From Dehalococcoidia bacterium (GTDB lineage: Bacteria; Chloroflexota; Dehalococcoidia; Lucifugimonadales; UBA1123), in contig OZ243978.1 in the NCBI GenBank assembly GCA_965214745.1, positions 2,807,554 to 2,871,553 of the forward strand: a stretch of 64,000 nucleotides of DNA, read 5' to 3'. The first letter of the stretch is position 1. Each line of letters begins with the position of its first letter. A program made the translations under genes and the position numbers. This document shows positions 7,425 through 32,079 of this stretch, one piece after another. The notes beneath the pieces are model-generated. The model saw nothing but the letters and a program-made list of their open reading frames with translations. It searched no databases and had not been told where the DNA came from.

Positions 7425-10400
7425 ATGACGACGACGCGACTATCCCCGAACGACGTAGACCCTCTCATGCTGAACGCGGCGCAGTGGCGCTGCATTGGCC
7501 CTCCGCGCGGCGGGCGCGTGGTGGCGGTGGCGGGCGACCCGGTTCGGCAGGGGACGTTCTACTTCGGCGCATGCGCGGGCGGCGTGTGGAAGACCGAGGA
7601 CGGCGGAACCTACTGGGAGAACGTGTCCGACGGATACTTCGCCACGGCTTCCGTCGGCGCTATCGCGGTGTCGGACTCAGACCCCAGCGTAGTGTACGCC
7701 GGCATGGGCGAGGCGTGCATACGGCTAGACGTCACGCACGGCGACGGCGTATACCGCTCCACCGACGGCGGGCGCAGCTGGACGCATCTGGGATTGGAAG
7801 ACACCCGCCATATATCCCGCGTTCGCATACATCCTAAGAATCCGGACATCGTGTACGTGGCGGCGCTCGGACACGCCTTCGGACCCAACGAGCGGCGCGG
7901 CGTGTTTCGCACCACCGACGGCGGCAAGAACTGGGAACGCATCCTCTACAAGAGCGAGAACGCCGGCGCCGCCGATCTGACTATGGACGCGAACAACCCG
8001 CGCGTGATGTTCGCCTCTATCTGGCAGGCTAGGCGAACCTTCTGGAGCATGGCGAGCGGCGGGCCTGACAGCGGCATCTGGCGAACCACCGACGGCGGCG
8101 ACAGCTGGGAAGACGTGTCCGGCAATCCGGGATTGCCTGAAGGCCCCTTCGGGCGCGTGGGCGTATCCATCGCGCCTTCCAAGCCGGGGCGCGTATACGC
8201 CACTATCGAGGCGAAGGGGCCGGGCGTGTTTCGCTCCGACGACTACGGCGACACGTGGACGCTCGTTTCCGACAACCGAGATCTGCAAGGCAGACCTTGG
8301 TACTACCAGCACATCTTCGCGGATCCGCAAGACGCCGATACGGTGTGGGTCCTCAACTATTCGGCGTGGAAGTCGATAGACGCTGGCAAGAGCTGGGAGG
8401 AGGTGAACACGCCGCACGGGGACAACCATGACCTTTGGATAGACCCGCGAAACCCGCAGCGGATGATAGAGGGCAACGACGGCGGCGCGTGCGTCAGCTT
8501 CAACGGCGGCGACACGTTCTCCACCATCTACAACCAGCTGACCGCGCAGTTCTACCACGCAACTACCGATACGCGCTTCCCGTATCGCGTCTATGGCACC
8601 CAGCAAGACAACAGCGCCATCAGCGTGCCGTCCCGCACGAACAAGGGCGGCATCCCTTGGGGAGACTGCTACACCGTCGGCAGCTCCGAGAGCGGTTACA
8701 TCGTCGTAGACCCGGAAAACCCGAACATCGTCATATCCGGAGCCATCGGCTCGTCGCCGGGCGGCGGCGGCAACATGTTGCGCTACGACCACTCCACCGG
8801 GCAAGTGCGGATAATCACCGTCTGGCCCGAACTCAACACAGGCTACGGAGCTGTGGAAGCCAAGTATCGCTTCCAGTGGACATACCCCATCCTGTTCTCT
8901 CCCCACGACTCCAACACGCTGTACGCGGCGGGCAACGTAGTGTTCGCGTCGAGCGATCAGGGCGGAAGCTGGCGTCCGATTAGCCCAGACCTCACCCGCA
9001 ACGACCCGGACAAGCTACAGCCGTCCGGCGGCGACATCACCGGCGACGCATCCGGAGCGGAGACGTACTGCACGGTGTTTTCGTTCGTGGAGTCTCCCCA
9101 CGAACGCGGCGTGTTCTGGGCGGGATCCGACGACGGCTTGGTTCACATATCCAGGGACGGCGGCGAGAACTGGCAAGACGTCACCCCGCACGATCTGGAA
9201 GAGTGGAGCCGCGTGGACATGATAGAGGTCTCCCCGCACGACGCGGCGACGGCGTACATATCCGCCACCCGATACAAGCACGACGACGACAGACCCTTCC
9301 TCTTCAAGACGGCTGACTACGGCGAGAGCTGGACGTCCATCGTCGGCGACCTCGACGCCAACGACTTCACGCGCTGCATCCGCGAAGACCCGGAGCGCGC
9401 GGGCATGCTGTACATAGGCACGGAGACGGGCGTTCGCGTGTCTTTCGACGACGGCGGAACGTGGCTGTCGCTCAGCGCCAACCTGCCCGTCGTGCCGGTG
9501 TACGACCTCGTCATCGAGGACGACGATCTGATAGCCGCCACGCACGGGCGCAGCTTCTGGATAATGGACGGGCTCAGCCTGCTGCGGCAGACGTCCGGCG
9601 AGCTCGCAGGCGACGAGGCGCGCCTGTTGACGCCGCCCACCAAGATACGCATGGCGGCGCCGTTCAGGGGGCGAGGCGGCGGCAGCGCGAAAGAGTACCA
9701 ACTCGCGCTCGGCGCGGCGGTGGCGTTCCGCGACCACAAAGACGAGCTTGGCGGAATCGAACGGCAGATGCTGGACGCGGGCGCGAACCCGCCCGCCGGC
9801 GTCCGCGTCTGGTACTGGCTGCGCGACGAGCCGGAAACCGACGTGGAGCTTGCCTTCCTAGACGCGAACGGCGAGACGATACGCGCATACTCCAGCGCGA
9901 AGGGCGACGATGACGACGCCCGCCCGCGCCTGTCCGCCCGCGCGGGCATGAACCGCTTCGATTGGAACATGCGCTATCCGGGCGCGAGCAAGGTTCGCGG
10001 CGACAAGACTACGGAAGATAGCCTGCGCGGTCCGCTCGCGCCGCCGGGCGGCTACTCGGTTCGGCTCACCGTTGGCGACACATCGCAGACAGCGAGCTTC
10101 GAGATGGTGAAAGACCCGCGAGTGTCCGCCACGCAGGAGGACTTCGACGCTCAGTTCGAGATGCTCATCGCAATCCGAGACAAGCTCAGCGAGACGCACG
10201 ATAGCGTCAACCGTCTGCGAAGCGCGCGGCGGCAGGTGGGCGAGTGGGCGGAGCGCGCGAAGGGCGGAACAGCGGAAGAGCCGGTGAAGGCGGCGGCGGA
10301 CGCGCTGACAGCCAAGCTCGACGACATCGAATCCGCGCTCATTCAGACTGAGTACCGCGGCGCGCGAGACCGCCTGCACCTGCCCATCAAGCTCAACGCC

Positions 10401-20786: not shown

Positions 20787-22172
20787 ATGCCCAGCCAGCT
20801 CTTCTCATCAGCCAAGTCCATCGCCGCCGCGATTCGCGCGCGGGACGTGTCCGCCGTCGAGGTGGTCGAGGCGCATCTGGAGCGCGTCGAGCAGGTCGAC
20901 GGGCAGCTCAACGCCGTCGTCGCGCTGTGCGGCGAGCGCGCGATGGACGAGGCGCGGGCGGCTGACGACGCGCTAACTCGCGGCGAGGAGGGCGGCGCGC
21001 TGCTAGGCGTTCCCATCACCGTGAAAGACTCGCACGACACGGCGGGCGTCGTCTCCACCGCCGGCACGCTGGGGCGCAAAGACCACGTTCCTACGCGCGA
21101 CGCGACGGCGGTGGCGCGGATGCGCGCGGCGGGCGCGATAGTTCTGGGCAAGACGAACACGCCTGAGTTCACGCTGGCGTTCGAGACGGAAAACCTAGTC
21201 TACGGGCGCACGAACAACCCATACGACGCGGAGCGGACGCCGGGCGGCAGCAGCGGCGGCGCGGCGGCTATCATCGCAGTGGGCGGATCCGCGCTAGACC
21301 TCGGCACAGACACCGGCGGCAGCATCCGCGTTCCCGCCGCGTTCTGCGGCATCGCCGGACTCAAGCCCACCTCCGGGCGCGTCCCGCGGACGGGCCACGC
21401 CGTGCCGTGGGGCATGGGAGGCATGGACACGCTCACCACCATAGGGCCTATGGCGCGGTTCGTAGAAGACCTCGCGCTCGCGCTGCCCATCATCGCGGGC
21501 GCGGACGGCGTAGACCCCGCCATCCACGACGCGCCGCTCGGCGATCCCGCAGACGTGGACGTCGGCGCGCTAAGGGTGGCGTTCTTCACAGACAACGGCA
21601 CGGTTGGCCCAACCGCCGAAGTGGACGCCGCAATCCGCGAAGCCGCTCGCGCGCTAGCCGACGCGGGCGCGGACGTAACGGAAGATATGCCCGCGTTCAT
21701 CGCCGAGAACCTCGGCGGCAGCATCCTCACGGCGGACGGCGGCGCGGCGGTGCGCCGACTCGTCGACGCGGCAGGCACGACCGAAACGCATAGGTGGATG
21801 CGGCGGTTCGTCGAGGCGTCCGAGCCGCTCAGCATCGAAGAGTACACCGCGCTGCTGGAGCGCATGGACGACTACCGCAGCCGCATGCTCGCGTTCATGC
21901 GAGATTACGACGCGCTGCTCAGCCCCGTCCGCCCGTATGCCGCGCCGCCGCACGGAGAATCCATGACGACGGAGAACAGCGCCGCCAACCTGTACACCAG
22001 CGCATTCAACACCACTGGTTCGCCCGGCGCCGTCGCGCGCGTGGGGACGTCTGCGGAAGGGCTGCCCATAGGCGCGCAGGTCATAGCGCGCCCGTGGCGG
22101 GAGGATGTCGCGCTCGCGCTAGCCGCCGCGCTCGAATCCGCGCTGGGGGGATACCGAAAGCCGGAGATTTAG
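20787..22172 (+). CDS. Amidase (amidase-signature family), paralogue 1
   Basis: Catalytic Lys (ITVKDS), GGSSGG, GTDTGGSIRVPA. C-terminus ALESALGGYRKPEI. Confidence 0.9.
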   Translation: MPSQLFSSAKSIAAAIRARDVSAVEVVEAHLERVEQVDGQLNAVVALCGERAMDEARAADDALTRGEEGGALLGVPITVKDSHDTAGVVSTAGTLGRKDHVPTRDATAVARMRAAGAIVLGKTNTPEFTLAFETENLVYGRTNNPYDAERTPGGSSGGAAAIIAVGGSALDLGTDTGGSIRVPAAFCGIAGLKPTSGRVPRTGHAVPWGMGGMDTLTTIGPMARFVEDLALALPIIAGADGVDPAIHDAPLGDPADVDVGALRVAFFTDNGTVGPTAEVDAAIREAARALADAGADVTEDMPAFIAENLGGSILTADGGAAVRRLVDAAGTTETHRWMRRFVEASEPLSIEEYTALLERMDDYRSRMLAFMRDYDALLSPVRPYAAPPHGESMTTENSAANLYTSAFNTTGSPGAVARVGTSAEGLPIGAQVIARPWREDVALALAAALESALGGYRKPEI

Positions 22173-22201
22173 CGGCGATGCTTGCCGTATCTCACAGAGA
22201 T

Positions 22202-22297
22202 GTGCAGGATGAACGGGATATTCGAGGCGATGGGCGGACGGATCCCCGCAGTGCGGTTATCCTGAGCATCCCCCGAAACCCCTTCATCCTGTAAATC
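22202..22297. repeat. Inverted pair of REP-like repeats forming a long imperfect hairpin between convergent genes
   Basis: GTGCAGGATGAACGGGAT...(centre CCCCGCAGTGCGG)...CCCCTTCATCCTGTAAATC. The arms CAGGATGAA/TTCATCCTG are complementary. Confidence 0.55.
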
Positions 22298-22326
22298 TAC
22301 GCAATCGTGGGCAAATTCAGTGGCGA

Positions 22327-22770
22327 CTACCTCGGAGCGGTGGCGAGGACAACAACGAGACGGGCAAACTCGCGTATGTCTTCAATCATCGTGCCCCTTA
22401 CCCTGCTCAAAGGCTGGCTTGGGAATACTTCCAATCCTCCCGTATCGACATCGTAGCCCCAGCTAGCAATCAACTCCATATAGTTATCGATAGCCTCTCC
22501 TCGGTGATTAGGCAAATAGTGTTCAAGGTGCTGGCGACAAGGTAACATAAGAGAGTCTCCGCCTCTGATTGCCATAAGGGATACAGTTCCGCAACCACTA
22601 TTTGGGCTGTTGACCCTCAGCGAGAACCCCCGTGAGCCGATGGTGTTCGCTTGGAAACGACCGTCCCCGACACTCTCGACCGTATTCGTGAGACGCGGAA
22701 CAAGTGCGCGGCGCACTTCCACCACTAGCTCGCTTCGCCACATTTCCGGGGAAACGCGAGATCTACGCAT
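22327..22770 (-). CDS. Hypothetical protein in a lower-GC islet
   Basis: ATG 22770 is preceded by AAGGAGG at 7 nt and by a near-consensus promoter. No recognisable domain. GC is about 50% against about 65% in the flanks. Confidence 0.6.
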   Translation of the reverse strand: MRRSRVSPEMWRSELVVEVRRALVPRLTNTVESVGDGRFQANTIGSRGFSLRVNSPNSGCGTVSLMAIRGGDSLMLPCRQHLEHYLPNHRGEAIDNYMELIASWGYDVDTGGLEVFPSQPLSRVRGTMIEDIREFARLVVVLATAPR

Positions 22771-22810
22771 GCCAATCCTCCTTACAAGTTGATTATACAG
22801 CACTGCATAC

Positions 22811-22840
22811 AGTATATAGCAGGCTTTATCACTTTGTCAA
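22811..22840 (-). promoter_or_regulatory. Near-consensus sigma70 promoter of the orphan ORF
   Basis: Minus strand reads TTGACA-N16-TATATA (or N18-TATACT), about 40 nt upstream of ATG 22770. Confidence 0.6.
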
Positions 22841-23063
22841 TACGCCATCGCCAGTTGAAATCAGATTACAGGACAGGCTAAGCGCAACAAGCAACGAGAA
22901 TAGCGCCGCTCACCCTACCCTATCCCTCTGGATTCCGACTTTCGTCGGAATAACGGATTGAGGGCAGAAATAGCCAGTTTGCGGCGAGGCGACTCAGCCC
23001 CGAAAGCGGCGACGCTATGATACTCTAGCCGCTATCAGGCACATCCCCGCCAAATGACCATCG

Positions 23064-23086
23064 CCTATCCCGCGCATCCTGTAAAT
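23064..23086. repeat. Dispersed GGAT-phased intergenic repeat (REP-like), copy
   Basis: CCTATCCCGCGCATCCTGTAAAT, ending 18 nt upstream of the amidase-2 ATG. Confidence 0.6.
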
Positions 23087-23104
23087 TCATGCTGAGGTCC
23101 CCCC

Positions 23105-24595
23105 ATGTCGTCGGACATCATCTACCGCTCCGCCAAGCACATCGCCGAATCCATACGCGAAAAGCGCGTGTCGGCTGTCGAGGTCGTCGAGGCGCATCTG
23201 GCGCAGATAGAGGAGTTGAATCCCCACATCAACGCCGTAGTCGCGCTGTGCGCGGAGCGCGCGCTGGACGAGGCCAAGGCAGCCGACGCCGCTATCGCGC
23301 GGGGCGACGAGCTTGGCGCGCTGCACGGCGTCCCCATGACGCTCAAGGACTCGCTGGACACCGAGGGCGTCGTCACCACGGGCGGCACGATGGGGCGCAA
23401 AGATTACGTGCCTGAGCGCGATTCGACCGTGGCGGCGCGACTGCGAGCGGCGGGCGCGATTCTGCTGGGCAAGACGAACACGCCTGAACTTACGCTCGCG
23501 GGGGAGACGGACAACCTCGTCTACGGGAGAACGAACAACCCTTGGGACATGCGGCGCGCGCCGGGCGGCAGCAGCGGCGGCGCGGCGGCTATCGTGTCCG
23601 TCGGCGGCTCGGCGTTCGACATCGGCTCCGACACCGGCGGCTCGATACGCGGCCCCGCGCACTGCTGCGGCATCACCGGCATCAAGCCCACGTCCGGGCG
23701 CGTCCCTCGCACAGGGCACGTCATCCCCTACGGCATGGGCGCGACCGACGCCTTCACCCAAAACGGGCCTATGGCGCGCCGCGTGGAAGACCTCGCGCTC
23801 ATCCTGCCCATCATATCCGGGCCAGACTGGGAAGATCCCGCCATCGTCCCCATGCCGCTCGGAGATCCGGCGGATGTGTCCATCGAGGGGTTGCGGGTAG
23901 CCATCTACGGCGTCGACGAGGGGCAAATCCCTGAGCCATACACTCCCCCATCCGAAGACACGATGAGCGTCATGGAAAGCGTCGTCGCCGCGCTCGAATC
24001 GCTTGGCGCGGCCGTCTCCCCCGCCGCGCCCACCGAGCAGCTGCGCCGCGTCCCAGAGCTTCAAGCGAAGGTGAGCGGCGGCGACGGGCGCGCTTGGGTG
24101 TGGCGGCTTCTAGACAAAGCGGGAACGCGAACCGAAGACGTGTCGCCCTTCCTGAAGAAGCGGTTCGAGGAGGCGGAGACCATCTCCACCGAAGAGTTCG
24201 CGCTTGCGCTGGAAGAGCTGGACAGGTATCGCAGCGAAATGCTCGGCTTCATGCACGACTACGAGTACGACGCGATAATCTGCCCCGTATCGTCCGGACC
24301 CGCGCCGATGCACGGGCAGACTTTCGAGCCACAGAACCGCAACGCATCGTACACAGGCCCCTACAATCTCACGGGGTGGCCCTCTACAGTCGTTCCCGTC
24401 GCATTCTCTCAGCGGATGCCATTAGGCATTCAGATAGTCGCCCGCCCTTGGCGCGAAGACGTCTCGCTGGCGCTCGCGCAAAGTCTGGATCCGGACTCTG
24501 CGGGGTGGACGTTCCCATCCAACGCATCTATGGATTCGGACTGGCGCGGCATCCCCGCCCCGAAAGCGGGTCCGCTGTGGTACTTTAACGACTAG
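23105..24595 (+). CDS. Amidase (amidase-signature family), paralogue 2, with divergent extended C-terminus
   Basis: MTLKDS, GGSSGG, GSDTGGSIRGPA. The N-terminal 250 aa or so are very similar to paralogue 3. The tail DPDSAGWTFPSNASMDSDWRGIPAPKAGPLWYFND replaces the ESALGGW/YRKP ending of the other two. Confidence 0.88.
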   Translation: MSSDIIYRSAKHIAESIREKRVSAVEVVEAHLAQIEELNPHINAVVALCAERALDEAKAADAAIARGDELGALHGVPMTLKDSLDTEGVVTTGGTMGRKDYVPERDSTVAARLRAAGAILLGKTNTPELTLAGETDNLVYGRTNNPWDMRRAPGGSSGGAAAIVSVGGSAFDIGSDTGGSIRGPAHCCGITGIKPTSGRVPRTGHVIPYGMGATDAFTQNGPMARRVEDLALILPIISGPDWEDPAIVPMPLGDPADVSIEGLRVAIYGVDEGQIPEPYTPPSEDTMSVMESVVAALESLGAAVSPAAPTEQLRRVPELQAKVSGGDGRAWVWRLLDKAGTRTEDVSPFLKKRFEEAETISTEEFALALEELDRYRSEMLGFMHDYEYDAIICPVSSGPAPMHGQTFEPQNRNASYTGPYNLTGWPSTVVPVAFSQRMPLGIQIVARPWREDVSLALAQSLDPDSAGWTFPSNASMDSDWRGIPAPKAGPLWYFND

Positions 24596-24646
24596 TCATC
24601 CCATTCATACCGTGAACCTATGCAATAATCCGCGCGGAGGTCTCCG

Positions 24647-26044
24647 ATGTCGGACATCATCTACAGCTCCGCCAAGCGAATCGCGGAATCCATACGCGAA
24701 AAGCGCATCTCCGCTGTCGAGGTCGTCGAGGCGCATCTGGCGCGCGTCGAGCAGGTCAACGGGCAGCTAAACGCCGTAGTCGCGCTGTGCGCCGAGCGCG
24801 CGCTGGAGGAGGCGAAGGCAGCCGACGCCGCTATCGCGCGGGGCGACGAGCTTGGCGCGCTGCACGGCGTCCCTATGACGCTCAAAGACTCGCTGGACAC
24901 CGAAGGCGTCGTCACCACAGGCGGCACAATGGGGCGAAAGGACTACGCGCCTGAGCGCGATTCGACCGTGGCGGCGCGGCTGCGCGCGGCGGGCGCGATT
25001 CTGCTGGGCAAGACGAACACGCCTGAGCTTACGCTCGCGGGCGAAACGGTCAACAGCGTGTACGGGCGCACGAACAACCCGTATCTGCTGGATAGGACTC
25101 CCGGCGGCTCTAGCGGCGGCGCGGCGGCTATCGTGGCGTCCGGCGGCGCGGCGTTCGACATCGGCTCGGACACCGGCGGCTCGATACGAATGCCCGCCCA
25201 CCTGTGCGGCATCGCGGGCGTCAAGCCCAACTCCGGGCGCGTCCCTCGCACAGGGCATATCATTTCTTACGGAATGGGCGCGACGGACGCTTACACGCAG
25301 AACGGGCCAATGGCGCGATACGTAGAAGACCTCGCGCTCATCCTGCCCATCATATGCGGGCCAGACTGGGAAGACCCCGCCATCGTCCCTATGCCGCTCG
25401 GAGACCCCGCGGACGTCGATCTGGGCGCGCTTAGGATCGCGTACTACACAGATGTGGACGGCTACAAAGAGCCGTCTCAGGAGACGCGAGACGCCACGCT
25501 CGCGGCCGCGATGGCGCTGTCGGACGTCGCCGCAAGCGTGGATGAGGACGTTCCGCCGCCGCTCAGCCGCGCGCCGGACATTTCGGCGCGGGTGGGCGAC
25601 GGCGACGGGCGCGCCGGAACGCGCCGCCTGCTCGCAGCCGCAGGCACGGCGGACGCCGACGTATCCCCCAACCTAGCCAAGCGCATCGCGGACGCAAGCG
25701 CCGTATCCGCCGCCGAGTACGGCGAGGCGCTCGAAGAGCTGGACGCCTTCCGCAGCGAGATGCTGGGCTTCATGAGAGGATACGACGCCATAGTCGCGCC
25801 AGTGACCGCGCTGCCCGCCACGCCTCACGGCGAGACGTTCGAGGAGCATTACAAGAACGGCTTCTACACGGGGCCATACAACCTGACCGGTTGGCCCGGC
25901 GCGGTCGTGCGATGCGGAACGTCGTCCGAAGGCTTGCCCATCGGCGCGCAGATAATCGCGCGCGCGTGGCGCGAGGACGTATCGCTCGCCATAGCCTCGT
26001 TCTTGGAATCCGCGCTCGGCGGCTGGAGGAAGCCGCCGCTGTAA
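24647..26044 (+). CDS. Amidase (amidase-signature family), paralogue 3
   Basis: MTLKDS, GGSSGG, GSDTGGSIRMPA. C-terminus FLESALGGWRKPPL. Confidence 0.9.
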   Translation: MSDIIYSSAKRIAESIREKRISAVEVVEAHLARVEQVNGQLNAVVALCAERALEEAKAADAAIARGDELGALHGVPMTLKDSLDTEGVVTTGGTMGRKDYAPERDSTVAARLRAAGAILLGKTNTPELTLAGETVNSVYGRTNNPYLLDRTPGGSSGGAAAIVASGGAAFDIGSDTGGSIRMPAHLCGIAGVKPNSGRVPRTGHIISYGMGATDAYTQNGPMARYVEDLALILPIICGPDWEDPAIVPMPLGDPADVDLGALRIAYYTDVDGYKEPSQETRDATLAAAMALSDVAASVDEDVPPPLSRAPDISARVGDGDGRAGTRRLLAAAGTADADVSPNLAKRIADASAVSAAEYGEALEELDAFRSEMLGFMRGYDAIVAPVTALPATPHGETFEEHYKNGFYTGPYNLTGWPGAVVRCGTSSEGLPIGAQIIARAWREDVSLAIASFLESALGGWRKPPL

Positions 26045-26054
26045 TCGCCGCCCC

Positions 26055-27092
26055 ATGACCACGGAAACCGACGCCTATATGCTGTTCACGCAGGCGCACG
26101 CCCACTACGTGCGCGGTCTCAGGCGCGCCGTGCGAGAGCGGCTAGAGGCGGCGCACGGCGCGAAGTGGTGGGAAAGCGGCGCGCTTGCCGTCTTGACCGA
26201 GCCGCAGAGAGACAACATCGTTCGCGCAATGGATAGGACATCCGATCAGCCGCCGGAGGATTTTCTGGACGCGATCCACTTCCCTAGAATCGTGGGCGTC
26301 AACCACAAGCAAGCGTTCGCAGACGCATTTCCCAACGCCAGCTCGACGTTCATCAGGATGCGAAACATAGCCGCAATGCGTAACGATTGGGCGCATGTGC
26401 AGACGCTGCGGTATCCTAGCGTCATCCAATCCATGAATGCGATGAAGGGCATATTAGCGTCGCTGGACTGCAAAGAGGCGCTGGAGATAGAGAAGATGAG
26501 CGACGACTTGGAGAAGTATCCGCAAACCGCCTCAGGAGAGCTAACCGACGCGGGCGAGCCTATGGATGACGGCGACGATTCGGATGTCGAGATCGAACGC
26601 ATTGACGTGTTGGATTATTGGAAACGGATTCATTCTTATTTGGTTCTAGAAAAGGAGGTGTCTCTTCCTGAAGATGGATCGAACGGTCAAGCCGAAGTCC
26701 TGCTGAGGGCGCGCAACACGGCGCCGGACATCGAAGGCAACCTTATGATAATCTTCCGGTCCATCAGAGTGGAGTACTACCAAGAAGGCGGGGGCAGAAA
26801 CTATGAGAGCATGAAAGACTTGGGTCCGGGGGACAGCGATCGAATAATGTTGCGGTTTTCTCCCGGCGCGTTGGCTACGGTCGAGTTGGAGCTTTGCGGC
26901 GATCTTGATTTAGCCACGCTAATTCGCGTCAGAAGAAAGAGCAGTCTGCCCGATGATGTCGTAGCTCCCATTCTGGCTGAATTCGTTGCAGAATTCGAGA
27001 AGATTGGCATCAAGAAAACGATGGACGATCTTATGGAAAGAATCAAGTCTATAGATGAGACGACAACCATTCGACAATTGTCCGACGTTTGA
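26055..27092 (+). CDS. Swt1-like HEPN domain protein with an unknown C-terminal domain
   Basis: The N-terminal 140 aa or so carry KWWESG...FPRIVGVNHKQAFADAFPN...IRMRNIAAMRNDWAH (R-N-x-x-A-H, an Rx4H HEPN motif, codons 109-114 at nt 26379-26396). An acidic linker follows, then a beta-rich domain I do not recognise. GC falls to about 40-50% after about 26400. Confidence 0.65.
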   Translation: MTTETDAYMLFTQAHAHYVRGLRRAVRERLEAAHGAKWWESGALAVLTEPQRDNIVRAMDRTSDQPPEDFLDAIHFPRIVGVNHKQAFADAFPNASSTFIRMRNIAAMRNDWAHVQTLRYPSVIQSMNAMKGILASLDCKEALEIEKMSDDLEKYPQTASGELTDAGEPMDDGDDSDVEIERIDVLDYWKRIHSYLVLEKEVSLPEDGSNGQAEVLLRARNTAPDIEGNLMIIFRSIRVEYYQEGGGRNYESMKDLGPGDSDRIMLRFSPGALATVELELCGDLDLATLIRVRRKSSLPDDVVAPILAEFVAEFEKIGIKKTMDDLMERIKSIDETTTIRQLSDV

Positions 27093-27098
27093 ACAGGT

Positions 27099-27371
27099 TT
27101 GGCAGATGTCAGACCCTGGGCGCGAACAATGCTGAGAGAGTTGAGCAACCTAAGAGACGCTTACCATATCCCTCGAGAGTCTGAATTAGGCAATCGGTTC
27201 ACAAGTATCTCCCAGCAAATCGAATACTTCTATCGGCATATTCGCAGCTTGAACGAGGCTATTGCCGGCATAGATCTAACACAGATCGCACAAGTCGTTC
27301 AGCGTCTAGAGGAGATTCGACTTGCAATCGTGCGCGACCACGACGCGATCCTCGATATAAAGGCTGATTAG
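27099..27371 (+). CDS. Small helical hypothetical protein, partner of the HEPN gene
   Basis: 90 codons from TTG 27099 (6 nt after the HEPN stop), or 80 from ATG 27129. Low GC. Predicted all-helical (LNEAIAGIDLTQIAQVVQRLEEIRLAIVRDHDAILDI). No recognisable domain. Confidence 0.45.
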   Translation: MADVRPWARTMLRELSNLRDAYHIPRESELGNRFTSISQQIEYFYRHIRSLNEAIAGIDLTQIAQVVQRLEEIRLAIVRDHDAILDIKAD

Positions 27372-27384
27372 CGCGCCCCACCAC

Positions 27385-28848
27385 GTGAACTGCATGAGCT
27401 GGCAAGACGACTACCGCCGCAAGCTGACCACCCCCGAAGACGCCGTCTCCATCGTCGAGGACGGCGACCGCGTTTTCGTGCCGCTCTCCGAACAGCCGAT
27501 GACGCTCATCGCCGCGCTTGCCGAACGGGCGCGCGACGTGCGGGGCGCGACGCTCAGCGTATCCGTGCCGCAGTTCGACCTCGCGCCTTTCCTAGAAGCG
27601 GGCTGGAACGTGGACGTCGAGAACTTCATAGGCCCATTCGGCAGGACCTACGAGAACGCGGGGCAGGCGCCCTACTCGCCGCTCGCTTTCTCGCTCACGT
27701 TCAAGGCGAACGACGAACGCCCAAGCGAAGCGCGCCCCATAGACGTGGCGCTGGTCGTCGTGTCGCGCCCCAACAGGCAGGGGCAGATAACCTTTGGGCC
27801 GCAATCTTGGTACAAGCGCGGCTTCGCCCAGCGCGCTCGCAAAGTCGCAGCCGAAGTCCACCCGTCGCTCATCCGCACCTACGGGGACGGGTTCATGCCC
27901 GCTAGCGGCATCGACAAGCTGGTCGAGGGCAAGGCGTCGGACGCAACCGCAGAATCTCTGCTCGCCGCAACCGCCGAGTTGCCACGCGGACGTCGGGATG
28001 CGCTCGCGGACATCATCGTGCGCGTCGCGCCGAGCCGTCTGGCGGCCGCCGCGCCCCACTTCGCGGACATAAACCTAGACAGGCTGCGGCGACAGCTTGG
28101 CATAGACGAGCCTTCCGCGGAATCCCGCGCCATCGCGGACAATGTGAAGCCGCTTGTGCCGAACGGCGCGACGATTCAGATAGGCGTCGGAACGCCGTCG
28201 TCTTACCTGCCGCGGCTGGGCGTCTTCGACGACAAGATAGACTTGGGGCTGCACTCCGAACTTACCGTGCCGGGCGTCGCCAAGCTGGTGGCGGCGGGCG
28301 TCATCAACGGCGCGCGCAAGACGATACACCGCGGGCGCGCGGTGGCGACCAGCTGGAGCGGCGCGAACGACGAAGACTTAGCCATAATCGACGACAACCC
28401 GCTGTTCGAGCTGTACTCGCCCGAATACACGCTGAACCCCGCCGTGATTGCGAGCAACCACATGCAAACCGGCATCAACAACGCGCTGAACGTGGACTTG
28501 CGCGGGCAGATTGGCTCGGAAAGCATCTTCGGAGGGCAGATGTACAACGGCATCGGCGGCCAGCCGGAGACGCATCTCGGCGCGCTGTACTCGCCGGGCG
28601 GGCGCGCGATAACGCTGCTGTACTCCACCGCTATCGGCGGCGCGGTGTCACGCATCGTTCCGCGCTTGGAGTCCGGCGAGATAGTGACCATGCCGCACTT
28701 CTGGGCGGACACGGTGGTTACCGAGTACGGCGTGGCGCAGCTGCTGGGCAAGAATCACCGCCAGCGGGCGGATGCGCTGATAGGCATAGCCCATCCCGAC
28801 TTCCGCGCCGAGCTGCGCCGAGCCGCCGCCGGCTGGCTGCTGGCGTGA
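27385..28848 (+). CDS. Acetyl-CoA hydrolase/transferase family protein (4-hydroxybutyrate CoA-transferase-like)
   Basis: Family-typical LHSELTVPG and GIGGQPE regions. 487 aa. GTG 27385 or ATG 27394 start. Confidence 0.75.
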   Translation: MNCMSWQDDYRRKLTTPEDAVSIVEDGDRVFVPLSEQPMTLIAALAERARDVRGATLSVSVPQFDLAPFLEAGWNVDVENFIGPFGRTYENAGQAPYSPLAFSLTFKANDERPSEARPIDVALVVVSRPNRQGQITFGPQSWYKRGFAQRARKVAAEVHPSLIRTYGDGFMPASGIDKLVEGKASDATAESLLAATAELPRGRRDALADIIVRVAPSRLAAAAPHFADINLDRLRRQLGIDEPSAESRAIADNVKPLVPNGATIQIGVGTPSSYLPRLGVFDDKIDLGLHSELTVPGVAKLVAAGVINGARKTIHRGRAVATSWSGANDEDLAIIDDNPLFELYSPEYTLNPAVIASNHMQTGINNALNVDLRGQIGSESIFGGQMYNGIGGQPETHLGALYSPGGRAITLLYSTAIGGAVSRIVPRLESGEIVTMPHFWADTVVTEYGVAQLLGKNHRQRADALIGIAHPDFRAELRRAAAGWLLA

Positions 28849-28878
28849 GCGGCTTGTCCTGACACGCGGAGGTTCCCA

Positions 28879-30036
28879 TTGCCCGGCGCTTTCACCATCG
28901 CCACCATCCACGGCGTGAGCTTTCGCGTCCATTTCTCTTGGCTGTTCGTGTTCGCGCTCGTAACATGGTCGCTCGCGGCGGGCTGGCTGCCTACTCGGTA
29001 CGAGGGCTGGAGCGTAACGCTGTACTGGACTATCGGCGCGATGGGCAGCGTCTTCCTGTTCATGTGCGTGGCTATTCACGAGTTCAGCCACTCTCTGGAG
29101 GCGACGCGGCGCGGGCTGATGGTGCGGAGCGTAACGCTCTTCTTGCTGGGTGGATACTCGGTCATAGAAGATCCTCGCAGCGCGCGCGAAGAGTTCTGGG
29201 TGTCCGCCGCCGGACCCATCGCAAGCCTCGCACTCGCCGCTGTGTTCGGGCTGCTCTACTACAACGTGAGAGCGTCGGAAAGCCCGTTCGCGGCGCTCAC
29301 GCAGTATCTGGCATTCGCCAACTTCTTCATCGCGCTGTTCAACCTAGCGCCCGCCTACCCGCTCGACGGCGGGCGCGTGCTGCGCGCGCTAGTGTGGCGC
29401 GCCACGAACAGCGAGCGGCGCGCGAGCCAAGTGGCGGGCTTCGCCGGAGTGTCGCTCGGCTATGGGCTCATCGGCGGAGGAGTCGCGCTGGCGCTCATCG
29501 CGCCCGCGTTCACCTCGCTTTGGTTCAGCGGAGTGTGGATTGCCGCCATAGGATGGTTCATCCGCTCAGCCGCGTCTTCTGCGGGCAGACAGTCGGCGCG
29601 TAGGGTGTCCATATCCGGGCGGCGCGTCGGAGAGGCGATGAGCGCGTTCGAGTCCGTGCCGCCCGGCATGACCATCCAGCGGCTGATCGAAGAGCGCATG
29701 GCGGCGGATTTGCAGCGCGTCTATCTCGTAACGCTCGGCGACACTTTCCACGGCATCATCACCGCGTCCGACGCGCTGCGCGCGCCGGCGGCGGAGCGCG
29801 CCCGCGCGTGGGTATCGCAAGCTATGACGCGGGCTAGCGACGTACATACGCTCGCGCCGAGCGACACGCTGGAAGACGGGCTAGCGGTACTGGCGGACAA
29901 CGAAATCCAGCAGGCGCCCGTCATAGAAGACGGCAAACCCGTGGGGCTGCTGACTCGCCACGACGTTTTGCGCGTGATGGAGGTGTCGCAGCTTGCGCCG
30001 GGCAACCCCGACGCCGAGCCGCAACCGCCCGAATAG
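28879..30036 (+). CDS. Site-2 protease (peptidase M50) with tandem CBS domains
   Basis: HEFSHSL zinc motif, second motif NLAPAYPLDGGRV, several TM helices, and a C-terminal CBS pair. TTG start with GGAGG SD. Confidence 0.85.
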   Translation: MPGAFTIATIHGVSFRVHFSWLFVFALVTWSLAAGWLPTRYEGWSVTLYWTIGAMGSVFLFMCVAIHEFSHSLEATRRGLMVRSVTLFLLGGYSVIEDPRSAREEFWVSAAGPIASLALAAVFGLLYYNVRASESPFAALTQYLAFANFFIALFNLAPAYPLDGGRVLRALVWRATNSERRASQVAGFAGVSLGYGLIGGGVALALIAPAFTSLWFSGVWIAAIGWFIRSAASSAGRQSARRVSISGRRVGEAMSAFESVPPGMTIQRLIEERMAADLQRVYLVTLGDTFHGIITASDALRAPAAERARAWVSQAMTRASDVHTLAPSDTLEDGLAVLADNEIQQAPVIEDGKPVGLLTRHDVLRVMEVSQLAPGNPDAEPQPPE

Positions 30037-30040
30037 ATCC

Positions 30041-30090
30041 ACAGCATGAACGGGATTTACATGCCTCTCATCCTGTTTATCTTGTTTTTA
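30041..30090. terminator. Hairpin built from an inverted REP-like pair plus T-run, a candidate bidirectional terminator
   Basis: ACAGCATGA (30041-30049) pairs with TCATCCTGT (30069-30077) at 8 of 9 positions, followed by TTATCTTGTTTTTA. It lies between the convergent S2P and CoA-transferase genes. Confidence 0.5.
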
Positions 30091-31284
30091 GACGATAACG
30101 CCCTTCTCCCGCAGGTCGGGCAACTCGTCGGGAGACACGCCTAGCAGCGAGGTCAGTATCTCGTCGGTATGCTCGGAGTACAGCGGCGCGGCTTCCACCT
30201 CCACGGGCGAGTCTTGCAGCTTCACCGGGCAACCTATCATGCGATAGTCGCCGCGCGCTTCGTCTTTCACCGTAACCAGCATGTCGCGCGCTTCTAGGTG
30301 GTGGTTTTCCAGCACTTCCAGCGGCGTGAACACGGGGCCGCACCACACGCCGGCGGCGGCAAGCGTCTCGAACGCCTCTACTTTGGTGCGCTGCATCGTC
30401 CACTCTTCGATGATGGACTGAATCTCTTCGGCGTGCTGCCCCTGCGTCTCGAAGCGCGTCAGTCGGTCGTCCGCCAGCAGGTCTTCGCGTCCGATGAGCG
30501 CGAGCGTCAACTCCAGCATCTTGCCGCGAATGTGGATCATAACGTAGTCATCGGGTCCGCCGGGCGCGCACCTGAACACTTGCGGCACGCCGCTCCAGCC
30601 CTTGTCGCCGGGTCGTCCGCCCCAAACGCCCGCTCCGAGCGGGTGGATCATGCTGATCCGCATGAGATTCAGCACGCCGTCTTGCATCGAGACTTCGACC
30701 TGCTGCCCTTCGCCGGTGGCGTCGCGCTGTCGGAGCGCGGCTAGAATGCCTATCGCCATGTGCAGCCCGGTGCCGCTGTCGCCCGCGCCAACGCCAACGG
30801 ATATGGGAGGACCGTCCGGGTAGCCGGTAACCGCCATCAGTCCGGCGGTCGCCTGCGCCGCTATCTCGTAAGACTTGTAGTCGGAGTAAGGCCCCCACGT
30901 GCCGAAGCCCTTGATGGTGGCGTAGATTACGGCGGGGTTTATCTGCTTGAGACGCTCGTAGCCAAAGCCGAGACGCTCCATAACGCCCTTCGAGAAGTTC
31001 TCCAGCACCACGTCCGCCCACTCGACCAGCTTGACGAACAACTGCTTGCCACGCTCGGTCTTGAGGTTCAGCGTTATGGCGCGCTTGTTGTTGTTGAATA
31101 TGGTGAAGTAGACGCTGTCCTGATCGGTTCGGGCGGCAAGCTCCCATCGCGTGTTGTCGCCGCCCGCAGCGTCTTCGAGCTTGATAACGTCCGCGCCGAG
31201 AAAGCCGAGCATCTGCGCGCACGAAGGCCCCGCCTGCACGCGGCTCATGTCGAGTATCTTGATGCCTGTGAGCGCCTTGTCCAT
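30088..31284 (-). CDS. Family III CoA-transferase (CaiB/BaiF/Frc-like)
   Basis: GIKILDMSRVQAGPSCAQMLGFLGADVIKLE N-terminus with catalytic-Asp region. 398 aa. Confidence 0.88.
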   Translation of the reverse strand: MDKALTGIKILDMSRVQAGPSCAQMLGFLGADVIKLEDAAGGDNTRWELAARTDQDSVYFTIFNNNKRAITLNLKTERGKQLFVKLVEWADVVLENFSKGVMERLGFGYERLKQINPAVIYATIKGFGTWGPYSDYKSYEIAAQATAGLMAVTGYPDGPPISVGVGAGDSGTGLHMAIGILAALRQRDATGEGQQVEVSMQDGVLNLMRISMIHPLGAGVWGGRPGDKGWSGVPQVFRCAPGGPDDYVMIHIRGKMLELTLALIGREDLLADDRLTRFETQGQHAEEIQSIIEEWTMQRTKVEAFETLAAAGVWCGPVFTPLEVLENHHLEARDMLVTVKDEARGDYRMIGCPVKLQDSPVEVEAAPLYSEHTDEILTSLLGVSPDELPDLREKGVIV

Positions 31285-31356: not shown

Positions 31357-32079
31357 CTAGGGATTTCGTCGCAAGTCTAGTTCAGCTCTGAGCCGACGGT
31401 TCTCAGCTTCGAGGGCAAGCCGCCGCTCGCGCTCCGCCAGCCGTCCTATGCGCTCGTCCCGGTGCGTCATCAGGTAAAGTCCAGTCTCAGGATCCCGAAA
31501 GCGCAACTCCCCATGCTCCCAGCACACATCCAGCCCCAAGACCTTGCTGCGCCCCCAGTATATCCCATCGCCCACCTGAACTATCGCTATGGGACGGTAT
31601 ACACCATCCACCAACTCGTCGCCAGCCAATCCTGGACGGCGCACCCACCCTGCATCGGGGTTCGGCTCGAAGCGCCAGTACTCCTGCGCTTCGTAGTCCT
31701 CGTAGCCCTTGCGCTTGGCGGTCGCGTCGCGGCGGCGGGTGCTGGGCGAAGCCACCTCCAGAACGAAGTCCGGCGGCTTGCCCCACTCCTCTATCGCGTA
31801 GCCGCGACGGTCGATGATGGCGTCGCGATCCACGTCGAACACTACGAGCAGATCGGGTATGAGTATCCCCCGCCGACTCTGGTCGTGCCGCCATCCGATG
31901 GGGACTTCGCTGAGGATGAGCGTGGTGGGAGAGTCTCCGAAGTGGAGTATCAGCGCGGTCTGGTGTCCGGGCAGGTGGAGATGGATGGGATTGAGCATAT
32001 CGCCCCTGGGCGGGAATACCGGGAAGCGCTGGACCCTCGTTGCGGATGGCTGCGGCGCGGCGAGCCTCGTGGTCGTCAT
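31357..32079 (-). CDS. Uma2/DUF820 family PD-(D/E)XK endonuclease, array copy 1 (240 aa, shortest tail)
   Basis: PDLLVVFDVD...PPDFVLEVASPSTRRRDATAKRKGYEDYEAQEYWRF core. 30-aa tail ...ERERRLALEAENRRLRAELD. Start MTTTRL (ATG 32079) with TAGGAGG SD. TATAAT at 32132-32127. Confidence 0.8.
   Translation of the reverse strand: MTTTRLAAPQPSATRVQRFPVFPPRGDMLNPIHLHLPGHQTALILHFGDSPTTLILSEVPIGWRHDQSRRGILIPDLLVVFDVDRDAIIDRRGYAIEEWGKPPDFVLEVASPSTRRRDATAKRKGYEDYEAQEYWRFEPNPDAGWVRRPGLAGDELVDGVYRPIAIVQVGDGIYWGRSKVLGLDVCWEHGELRFRDPETGLYLMTHRDERIGRLAERERRLALEAENRRLRAELDLRRNP

Follow-up and report, generated by a model that had tools for sequence, protein, structure and literature searches.

A HEPN_Swt1 gene probably split by an in-frame stop codon in a Dehalococcoidia bacterium

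Two closely packed open reading frames (ORFs) lie on the plus strand, at 26055..27092 and 27099..27371, of a 64,000-nucleotide stretch of contig OZ243978.1 from a Dehalococcoidia bacterium; the whole stretch is referred to here as the window. The first ORF encodes 345 amino acids (aa) from an ATG and carries a HEPN domain of the Swt1 type; the second encodes 90 aa from a TTG. The initial annotation described them as a compositionally foreign two-gene cassette, a HEPN ribonuclease (RNase) with a small helical partner, reminiscent of toxin-antitoxin and abortive-infection systems. Are these two genes, or one? The answer favoured here, with a probability of about 0.88, is a single gene that has been split by a C-to-T change creating a stop codon; the intact form would be a four-part, 438-aa putative HEPN RNase, found so far in Dehalococcoidia only.

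Reading frame and homologues

Both ORFs are present as first described, and the packing is as tight: 10 nt separate the stop codon of the upstream amidase gene from the HEPN start, 6 nt separate the HEPN stop from the TTG, and 13 nt separate the end of the second ORF from the start of the downstream CoA-transferase gene. The two starts are 27099 - 26055 = 1044 nt apart; this is 348 x 3, which places both ORFs in one frame. Translation of 26055-27371 gives 438 codons, and the sole internal stop is a TGA at 27090-27092. The interrupted HEPN gene (26055..27371, plus strand) would encode a HEPN_Swt1 domain, a linker, a beta-sandwich and a helical bundle, with the in-frame TGA at codon 346. The ORF at 27099..27371 (plus strand), in the same frame as 26055, corresponds to its severed last 90 codons.

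Relatives of the protein are rare; a search of 5.8 billion proteins returned only 17. Thirteen of the 17 are 431-464 aa long and cover the whole span. In the family alignment, arginine occupies the stop column in all 13 homologues that reach codon 346, and in all 13 the protein runs on through the "partner" region, which forms its C-terminus and contains the conserved motif LxQIQLAVLRVED. The product of 27099..27371 can be aligned to the C-terminal end of each full-length homologue. In reference genomes, the nine full-length matches are all from Dehalococcoidia metagenome-assembled genomes.

Two close relatives are informative for the stop itself. The closest homologue, P0001, has 99% identity and a length of 438 aa, the sum of the 345 and 90 codons of the two ORFs and the three codons between them; ...QLSDV*TGLADV... 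in the window corresponds to ...QLSDVRTGLADV... in P0001. Its gene lies on locus L001, which has ~97.4% nucleotide identity to the window and the same gene order (three amidase genes, HEPN gene, CoA-transferase, M50/CBS peptidase). At window position 27090, L001 has C, giving CGA (Arg) and not TGA. The second relative, L023, is a short-read assembly of another sample; it is syntenic, 99.3% identical to the window over 8.3 kb, and encodes an intact 438-aa protein, P0166. The HEPN genes of L023 and the window differ at only 4 of 1317 nt, one difference being CGA versus TGA, and there are no differences in the 276 nt 3' of the stop. The premature stop (27090..27092, plus strand) is thus set apart by a T at 27090, where L001 and L023 both have C. 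On this sequence comparison the TGA is the derived state; it would have arisen by C-to-T at a CpG, turning TTCGAA into TTTGAA.

Database records agree with these observations. Four proteins make up the cluster: two are intact at 438 aa, one has 345 aa and one 80 aa. The 345-aa product and the 80-aa call share one 2.93-Mb contig, evidently that of the window's own genome. In the protein table the truncated product is on record for this contig only, and a gene-position index has no entry for exactly the 345-aa product. The 80-aa protein, P0167, was called by the annotators of the source genome inside the tail ORF, with its start at Met11.

In a real two-gene cassette, the 345-aa HEPN protein and an 80-90-aa helical protein would be made separately and act together, for example as toxin and antitoxin. 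Two potential starts exist in the same frame, the TTG 6 nt past the stop and the ATG that forms codon 11 of the small ORF; the annotators' call at the tail and the presence of short tail-only proteins in the database also speak for a separate product. However, the ORFs share a frame, the stop sits at an invariant Arg codon, and the close relatives L001 and L023 are both unsplit. The initial annotation named homologues that never co-occur with the small ORF as an argument against two genes, and no full-length homologue has a separate small gene at the tail position; tail-only entries start at many alignment positions, as fragments do and a conserved small gene would not. In addition, the tail helices are modelled within one helical region of the same polypeptide, and no convincing ribosome-binding site is seen by eye before either start. 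Profile searches of the small ORF give nothing significant in Pfam, NCBIfam, PHROGs or PADLOC. A separately made partner is very improbable, and the two-gene system originally proposed is largely refuted. Since the frame is shared, the relatives have CGA and the homologues are unsplit, the small helical partner is best understood as the severed 3' end of the HEPN gene.

Substitution patterns fit a single gene that was functional until lately. Between the window and L001, the ratio of nonsynonymous to synonymous substitution rates (dN/dS) is 0.08 for codons 1-345; the neighbouring genes have values of 0.11 (amidase), 0.12 (CoA-transferase) and 0.07 (M50 peptidase). A ratio this low, and near those of the neighbours, indicates that the HEPN gene was under purifying selection until very recently. 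The ratio is 0.29 after the stop, against 0.08 before it; the later part holds only 10 substitutions (Fisher's p = 0.22).

The case also carries a caution for annotation. A tightly packed pair of "toxin" and small partner may be one gene broken by a single nonsense codon; a reading-frame check and one close relative suffice to settle such pairs.

Origin of the stop codon

The TGA may be a genuine nonsense mutation of very recent origin; otherwise it is a base-call or consensus error. The copy in the window is probably a pseudogene of very young age, or else an assembly error, and has little interest of its own.

If the stop is a sequencing or assembly error, the gene is intact in the organism and is an ordinary full-length member of the family. 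This is a serious possibility, although the odds are against it. The truncated product comes from a single contig, and the 276-nt tail has not decayed relative to intact L023. The changed base lies at a CpG within the palindrome TTCGAA; methylation at CpG and palindrome sites of this kind can disturb long-read base calling. One homologue has its own frameshift in a G-run, as long-read errors would give. In contrast, three further TTCGAA sites in the window are unaltered, and systematic miscalling at this sequence, tested in the window, is unsupported. The 300 differences between the window and L001 have a normal, transition-biased spectrum and so give no hint of systematic miscalls. A well-covered consensus seldom contains single-base substitutions, and C-to-T at CpG is also the commonest type of real mutation. 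A scan of the window for further same-frame ORF pairs split by a stop says little either way, since spurious long open frames are common in high-GC DNA.

A full-length protein would still be made if the TGA were read through or recoded, and the identity of the tail to that of L023 would suit such a mechanism. However, the relatives have an ordinary CGA Arg codon at this position. At gathering threshold, a tRNA is all that Rfam finds across the window; no selenocysteine insertion sequence (SECIS) or other recoding element is found, and the tRNA genes of the window are tRNA-Ser and tRNA-Met only. TGA also ends neighbouring genes normally, for example the amidase (stop at 26042-26044). Recoding is unlikely in the extreme.

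Other family copies are broken in the same part of the gene. L005 has a frameshift near codon 362 (about 9085-9095), with an extra G in a G-run; this may be a long-read or assembly artefact, judging from the run in which it falls. L008 (about 9150-9160) has a 1-nt deletion near codon 385, which is identical in L009; these assemblies come from two samples. In each case the tail is readable in another frame. Three independent breaks of the C-terminal tail (window, L005, L008/L009) are suggestive; they are too few and too exposed to assembly error to be more than that.

Architecture and possible role of the intact protein

The protein begins with an all-helical HEPN domain at residues 1-153 (26055..26513, plus strand). 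The Swt1-type assignment made initially is borne out: residues 19-136 match Pfam HEPN_Swt1 (PF18731) at E = 1.6e-7, and the score of 32 bits exceeds the gathering score of 27.5 bits. AlphaFold2 models helices over residues 3-153, with predicted local distance difference test (pLDDT) values of about 80-96. The putative catalytic Rx4H motif, RNDWAH (R109-H114; 26379..26396, plus strand), was read from the sequence and from alignment A1; it is encoded by CGT AAC GAT TGG GCG CAT, and R109, N110, W112, A113 and H114 are invariant in the 17 homologues. Profile threshold and motif together place the domain in the Swt1-like HEPN family.

Residues 155-182 (26517..26600, plus strand) form an acidic linker that is predicted to be disordered (pLDDT < 50) and varies in both sequence and length in A1; the acidic stretch ELTDAGEPMDDGDDSDVE reported earlier is present. 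A helix and a seven-stranded beta-sandwich are modelled at residues 183-297 (26601..26945, plus strand). The sandwich contains a largely conserved NTAPD motif (residues 221-225; 26715-26729, plus strand), in which N221 is invariant, and a PG pair, P258 and G259, that is invariant across the family. The C-terminal region, residues 300-438 (26952..27368, plus strand), is modelled as six helices, the last part resembling a four-helix bundle. Predicted secondary structure agrees with the beta-rich middle and helical end of the initial description.

Two AlphaFold2 models were made: one of the full protein, with the family alignment as input (mean pLDDT 81.4), and one of residues 183-438 only, with a deeper alignment (mean pLDDT 92.1). 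Both place the C-terminal helices at 300-317, 319-331, 339-349, 352-369, 377-404 and 408-433. The stop at codon 346 removes the last three of these (352-369, 377-404 and 408-433). If the truncation is real, the 345-aa product of the window is probably inactive, with half of the helical region gone.

Outside the HEPN domain, no family can be assigned from profile libraries or from sequence and Foldseek searches of the PDB, as the initial annotation had also reported. The C-terminal half gives nothing significant against Pfam, NCBIfam, PHROGs and PADLOC. The family profile finds only chance-level coiled-coil matches among PDB sequences (E at least 0.13), and no HEPN structure. By Foldseek, the sandwich resembles the transglutaminase beta-barrel 2xzz (target-normalised template modelling score, TM-score, 0.60), ApaG and PDE6D/Unc119; this is a generic likeness. 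The tail resembles the four-helix bundles of BRIL, Tar (1jmw) and the LytS N-terminal domain (5xsj_L). The best Foldseek E-value of the module against the PDB, 5e-4 for pT26-6p (2wb7_A), goes with a TM-score of only 0.25. A Foldseek search of a viral structure library with the full-length model gave nothing useful.

The C-terminal module of ~250 aa also occurs in other proteins. When 1.84 billion representative proteins are searched with a profile of residues 183-438, 225 match with an E-value of 1e-3 or lower and 59 with one of 1e-30 or lower. Among 117 longer representatives, HEPN_Swt1 is found in 34 (best E = 3e-15) and HTH_3 in three, one of which also has NYN; the others have no Pfam domain. 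HEPN_Swt1 (34) and NYN (1) are the only enzymatic domains detected with the module in these 117. In HEPN fusions the module starts near residue 180-200. P0150 and P0156 have an Xre-type helix-turn-helix (HTH) domain N-terminal to it, and one protein, P0125, has an HTH and an NYN RNase domain ahead of it. Stand-alone module proteins are ~260 aa long (e.g. P0079, P0082 and P0096) and have no Pfam match; one such gene adjoins ABC transporter genes, with no nuclease gene nearby. In P0152 the module is recognised with an hhalign probability of 96.9% and is followed by an extension containing RKARNEAVHP; this is another Rx4H-like motif, and it has no Pfam or profile support.

A subgroup of module proteins (P0083, P0085, P0089, P0129, P0150, P0152 and P0156) has a large insert in the beta-sandwich. 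The C-termini of this subgroup share the motif [YH]x[IL]SDxE[VA]xYxYR. The N-terminus of P0129 resembles a lipoprotein signal peptide.

Active HEPN domains with an Rx4-6H motif are metal-independent endoribonucleases, with the active site located between two HEPN domains (Anantharaman et al. 2013, PMC3710099). Going by this superfamily, the intact protein would be an endoribonuclease of the same kind, again metal-independent and with its active site between two HEPN domains. The beta-sandwich and helical-bundle module could serve as a dimerisation unit or as a signal-dependent sensor-regulator. By analogy, the most likely role of the intact protein would be that of a self-contained regulated RNase: a single polypeptide that works without a separate antitoxin. 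A toxin-antitoxin or abortive-infection role, as first suggested, is possible; the protein may act in anti-phage defence, in a stress response or in RNA processing.

Some points weigh against this account. No solved HEPN structure is among the 50 matches listed in either Foldseek search, so the HEPN assignment depends on the motif together with the Pfam profile. The regulatory or dimerising function proposed for the module is a guess from its fusion partners. Truncated forms could have a biology of their own and not represent simple loss of function.

The intact family represents a new architecture among Swt1-type HEPN proteins. Its module has no Pfam model and is found both alone and in fusions involving HTH domains and two unrelated RNase domains. 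A tentative extension, which is doubtful as a whole, takes the module for a sensor or regulatory domain not described before, one that has repeatedly been combined with RNase effectors (HEPN_Swt1, NYN) and with Xre-type HTH domains. The Dehalococcoidia HEPN fusion would then be a new single-protein, RNA-targeting switch in stress or immunity, and the tail breaks would reflect selection against, or modulation of, a costly RNase. If the module is indeed a sensor or regulator, it offers a way to study how stand-alone HEPN RNases are restrained without an antitoxin; such systems have hardly been studied in Chloroflexota, class Dehalococcoidia.

How does the family compare with known systems? Among the closest is the Swt1/Abi2 clade of HEPN domains (PF18731); the N-terminal domain scores above the gathering score and keeps the Rx4H motif, which defines the catalytically active bacterial Swt1/Abi2 versions (PMC3710099). 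Described bacterial architectures of this clade are AAA+ ATPase (DUF499) fusions in restriction-modification operons, superfamily I (SF-I) helicase fusions and membrane-anchored forms (PMC3710099). In the present family, by contrast, the domain is fused to a sandwich and bundle module that no Pfam model covers, the gene is solitary, and every named host belongs to Dehalococcoidia. The combination of HEPN_Swt1 with this module is absent from the bacterial Swt1/Abi2 list of the 2013 survey (PMC3710099).

HEPN-MNT toxin-antitoxin systems (type II/VII) share with the family a HEPN domain, an Rx4-6H motif and a presumed RNase activity. In contrast to these systems, no MNT gene lies beside any family member examined; the initial annotation noted that this partner is missing in the window, and neither it nor any other recognised antitoxin is found among Pfam-annotated neighbours of about 15 independent loci. 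The HEPN domain is also of Swt1 type and does not belong to the nucleotidyltransferase-associated families, and the "partner" is part of the same gene.

The sole tie to defence is a modest resemblance to PADLOC candidate PDC-M34: models of its component B (PDC-M34B) hit the HEPN region of 11 of the 17 members, at E down to about 5e-6. This likeness is limited: the match to the 345-aa ORF of the window is weak (E = 0.018), P0001 has no match at E up to 0.01, only the HEPN part is covered, and the second component, M34A, is not detected. PDC-M34 is itself a computational candidate only, and no papers on HEPN_Swt1 or PDC-M34 were found in the literature library searched.

AbiD/AbiF (Abi2 family) and AbiJ resemble the family in combining a stand-alone HEPN domain with an extra domain and in having no cognate antitoxin gene; the L003 homologue also adjoins a gene with a sub-threshold AbiJ_NTD4 match. 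The window protein has no Abi_2 or AbiJ match in Pfam, however, and the family has no phage or plasmid association and lies mostly among metabolic genes.

Genomic context and length of residence

In the window, the HEPN gene lies between two metabolic genes. Upstream is the third of three tandem amidase genes (24647..26044, plus strand; PF01425, E = 5.8e-107); downstream is an acetyl-CoA hydrolase/transferase family gene (27385..28848, plus strand; PF13336, E = 1.7e-46). The HEPN gene is probably co-transcribed with its neighbours, to judge from this arrangement. Between the three genes there are no terminator-like sites, and over 22000-29000 such sites occur no more often than in shuffled sequence.

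The same amidase and CoA-transferase context is found in L001, L023, L012 and L013. The upstream amidase is syntenic in L001, L023 and L013, and amidases are also upstream in L012. The CoA-transferase gene is directly 3' of the HEPN gene in L001, L023, L012 (2-nt gap) and L013 (5-nt gap). The site is kept, with gaps of 2-13 nt, in the diverged loci L012 and L013; their flanking proteins are 69-78% identical to those of the window, versus 35-38% for the HEPN protein. Loci with this context form one clade in a neighbour-joining tree, and no presence/absence variation is seen, as the HEPN gene occupies the same site in all four.

Elsewhere, the family occurs in different contexts, across which there is no conserved neighbour gene. 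L004, L007 and L017 have a MoCF-biosynthesis gene upstream and an ORF of 115-118 aa downstream. L003 has the neighbour with the AbiJ_NTD4 match mentioned above, L005 lies in an integrase/Toprim/AAA_25 island, L006 is beside Uma2 and PTE genes, and L008 and L010 are among transposases and an AAA_15 ATPase. Metabolic or repair genes of various kinds surround L011, L015 and L018-L020. Neighbours thus resemble mobile elements or defence genes in L003, L005, L008 and L010, a sample too small for statistics; they are metabolic in the window, L001, L004, L006, L007, L011-L013, L015 and L018-L020.

The 115-118-aa ORF starts exactly at the HEPN stop codon, and so overlaps it, in all three of its loci (L004 9329-9685, L007 9302-9649 and L017 9317-9664) and has no Pfam match. 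Its synteny in three genomes could mark a lineage-specific partner or merely a neighbour kept by synteny.

The composition of the HEPN gene is atypical. GC content is 0.535, versus 0.652 in the flanks, and GC at third codon positions (GC3) is 0.64, versus 0.82-0.85 in the neighbours. Measured in 200-nt windows, the flanks have a GC of 0.65-0.70 and the stretch at about 26200-27400 has only 0.445-0.57; the 1-kb bin 26001-27000 (GC 0.567) is the second lowest of the 64-kb window. The 5' HEPN-domain part is GC-richer than the 3' part, as initially noted, and GC3 decreases in the same direction, being 0.77 for residues 1-150, 0.62 for 151-300 and 0.51 for 301-438. Exchange of the C-terminal module by recombination is one possible source of this gradient. 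L013 (8001-9308) has the same N- to C-terminal fall in GC3; most other family members do not.

Is the gene then a foreign defence gene, recently acquired and horizontally inserted into a metabolic operon? Its low GC and GC3 relative to the flanks would fit such an origin, as would the position of some homologues among transposases, integrases or an AAA_15 ATPase (L005, L008 and L010) and the match of the HEPN part to PDC-M34B in 11 of 17 members. However, the amidase/CoA-transferase site is also occupied in L012 and L013, within one clade of the gene tree, and GC of the HEPN gene is 4-16 points under its flanks in 20 of 20 loci. No flanking repeats are found around the gene and no tRNA gene adjoins it. 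A tblastn search of 50,697 phage and 72,556 plasmid records found no relatives, and ordinary metabolic genes surround the gene in most contexts. Recent acquisition is improbable, since low GC is found family-wide and gene order is kept in diverged genomes. The term "compositionally foreign" therefore stands as a measurement; it is weak as a sign of recent acquisition, given the family-wide low GC, the kept gene order and the lack of flanking repeats or of an excess of terminator-like sites. Taken together, the observations describe a long-resident, fast-evolving gene that has kept its atypical composition, and not a fresh insertion.

A few other features of the window were observed. The three tandem paralogous amidase genes (20787-26044; PF01425) are 53-69% mutually identical; the triplet is kept in L001 and L023, while L012 has two copies and one is seen upstream in L013. 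L001 and L023 both lack a ~790-bp segment at 22301-23091, which has a GC of about 0.565 (the lowest 1-kb bin of the window). A direct repeat of ~15 nt flanks it on either side (CATCCTGTAAATCTA at 22286-22300 and CATCCTGTAAATTCA at 23077-23091) and is present as a single copy in L001; the segment looks like a small insertion with a target-site duplication. It contains a 158-aa ORF on the minus strand (22327..22803) without a Pfam match, preceded by a near-consensus promoter, TTGACA-18-TATACT, at 22840-22811 on the minus strand.

Finally, an ORF at 31357-31842 (minus strand) encodes a fragment of a Uma2-family putative restriction endonuclease (PF05685) and adjoins a family III CoA-transferase gene (30088-31284, minus strand). 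Uma2 genes are also found near the HEPN gene in L004 and L006, and in L015 a family III CoA-transferase gene lies directly 3' of the HEPN gene.

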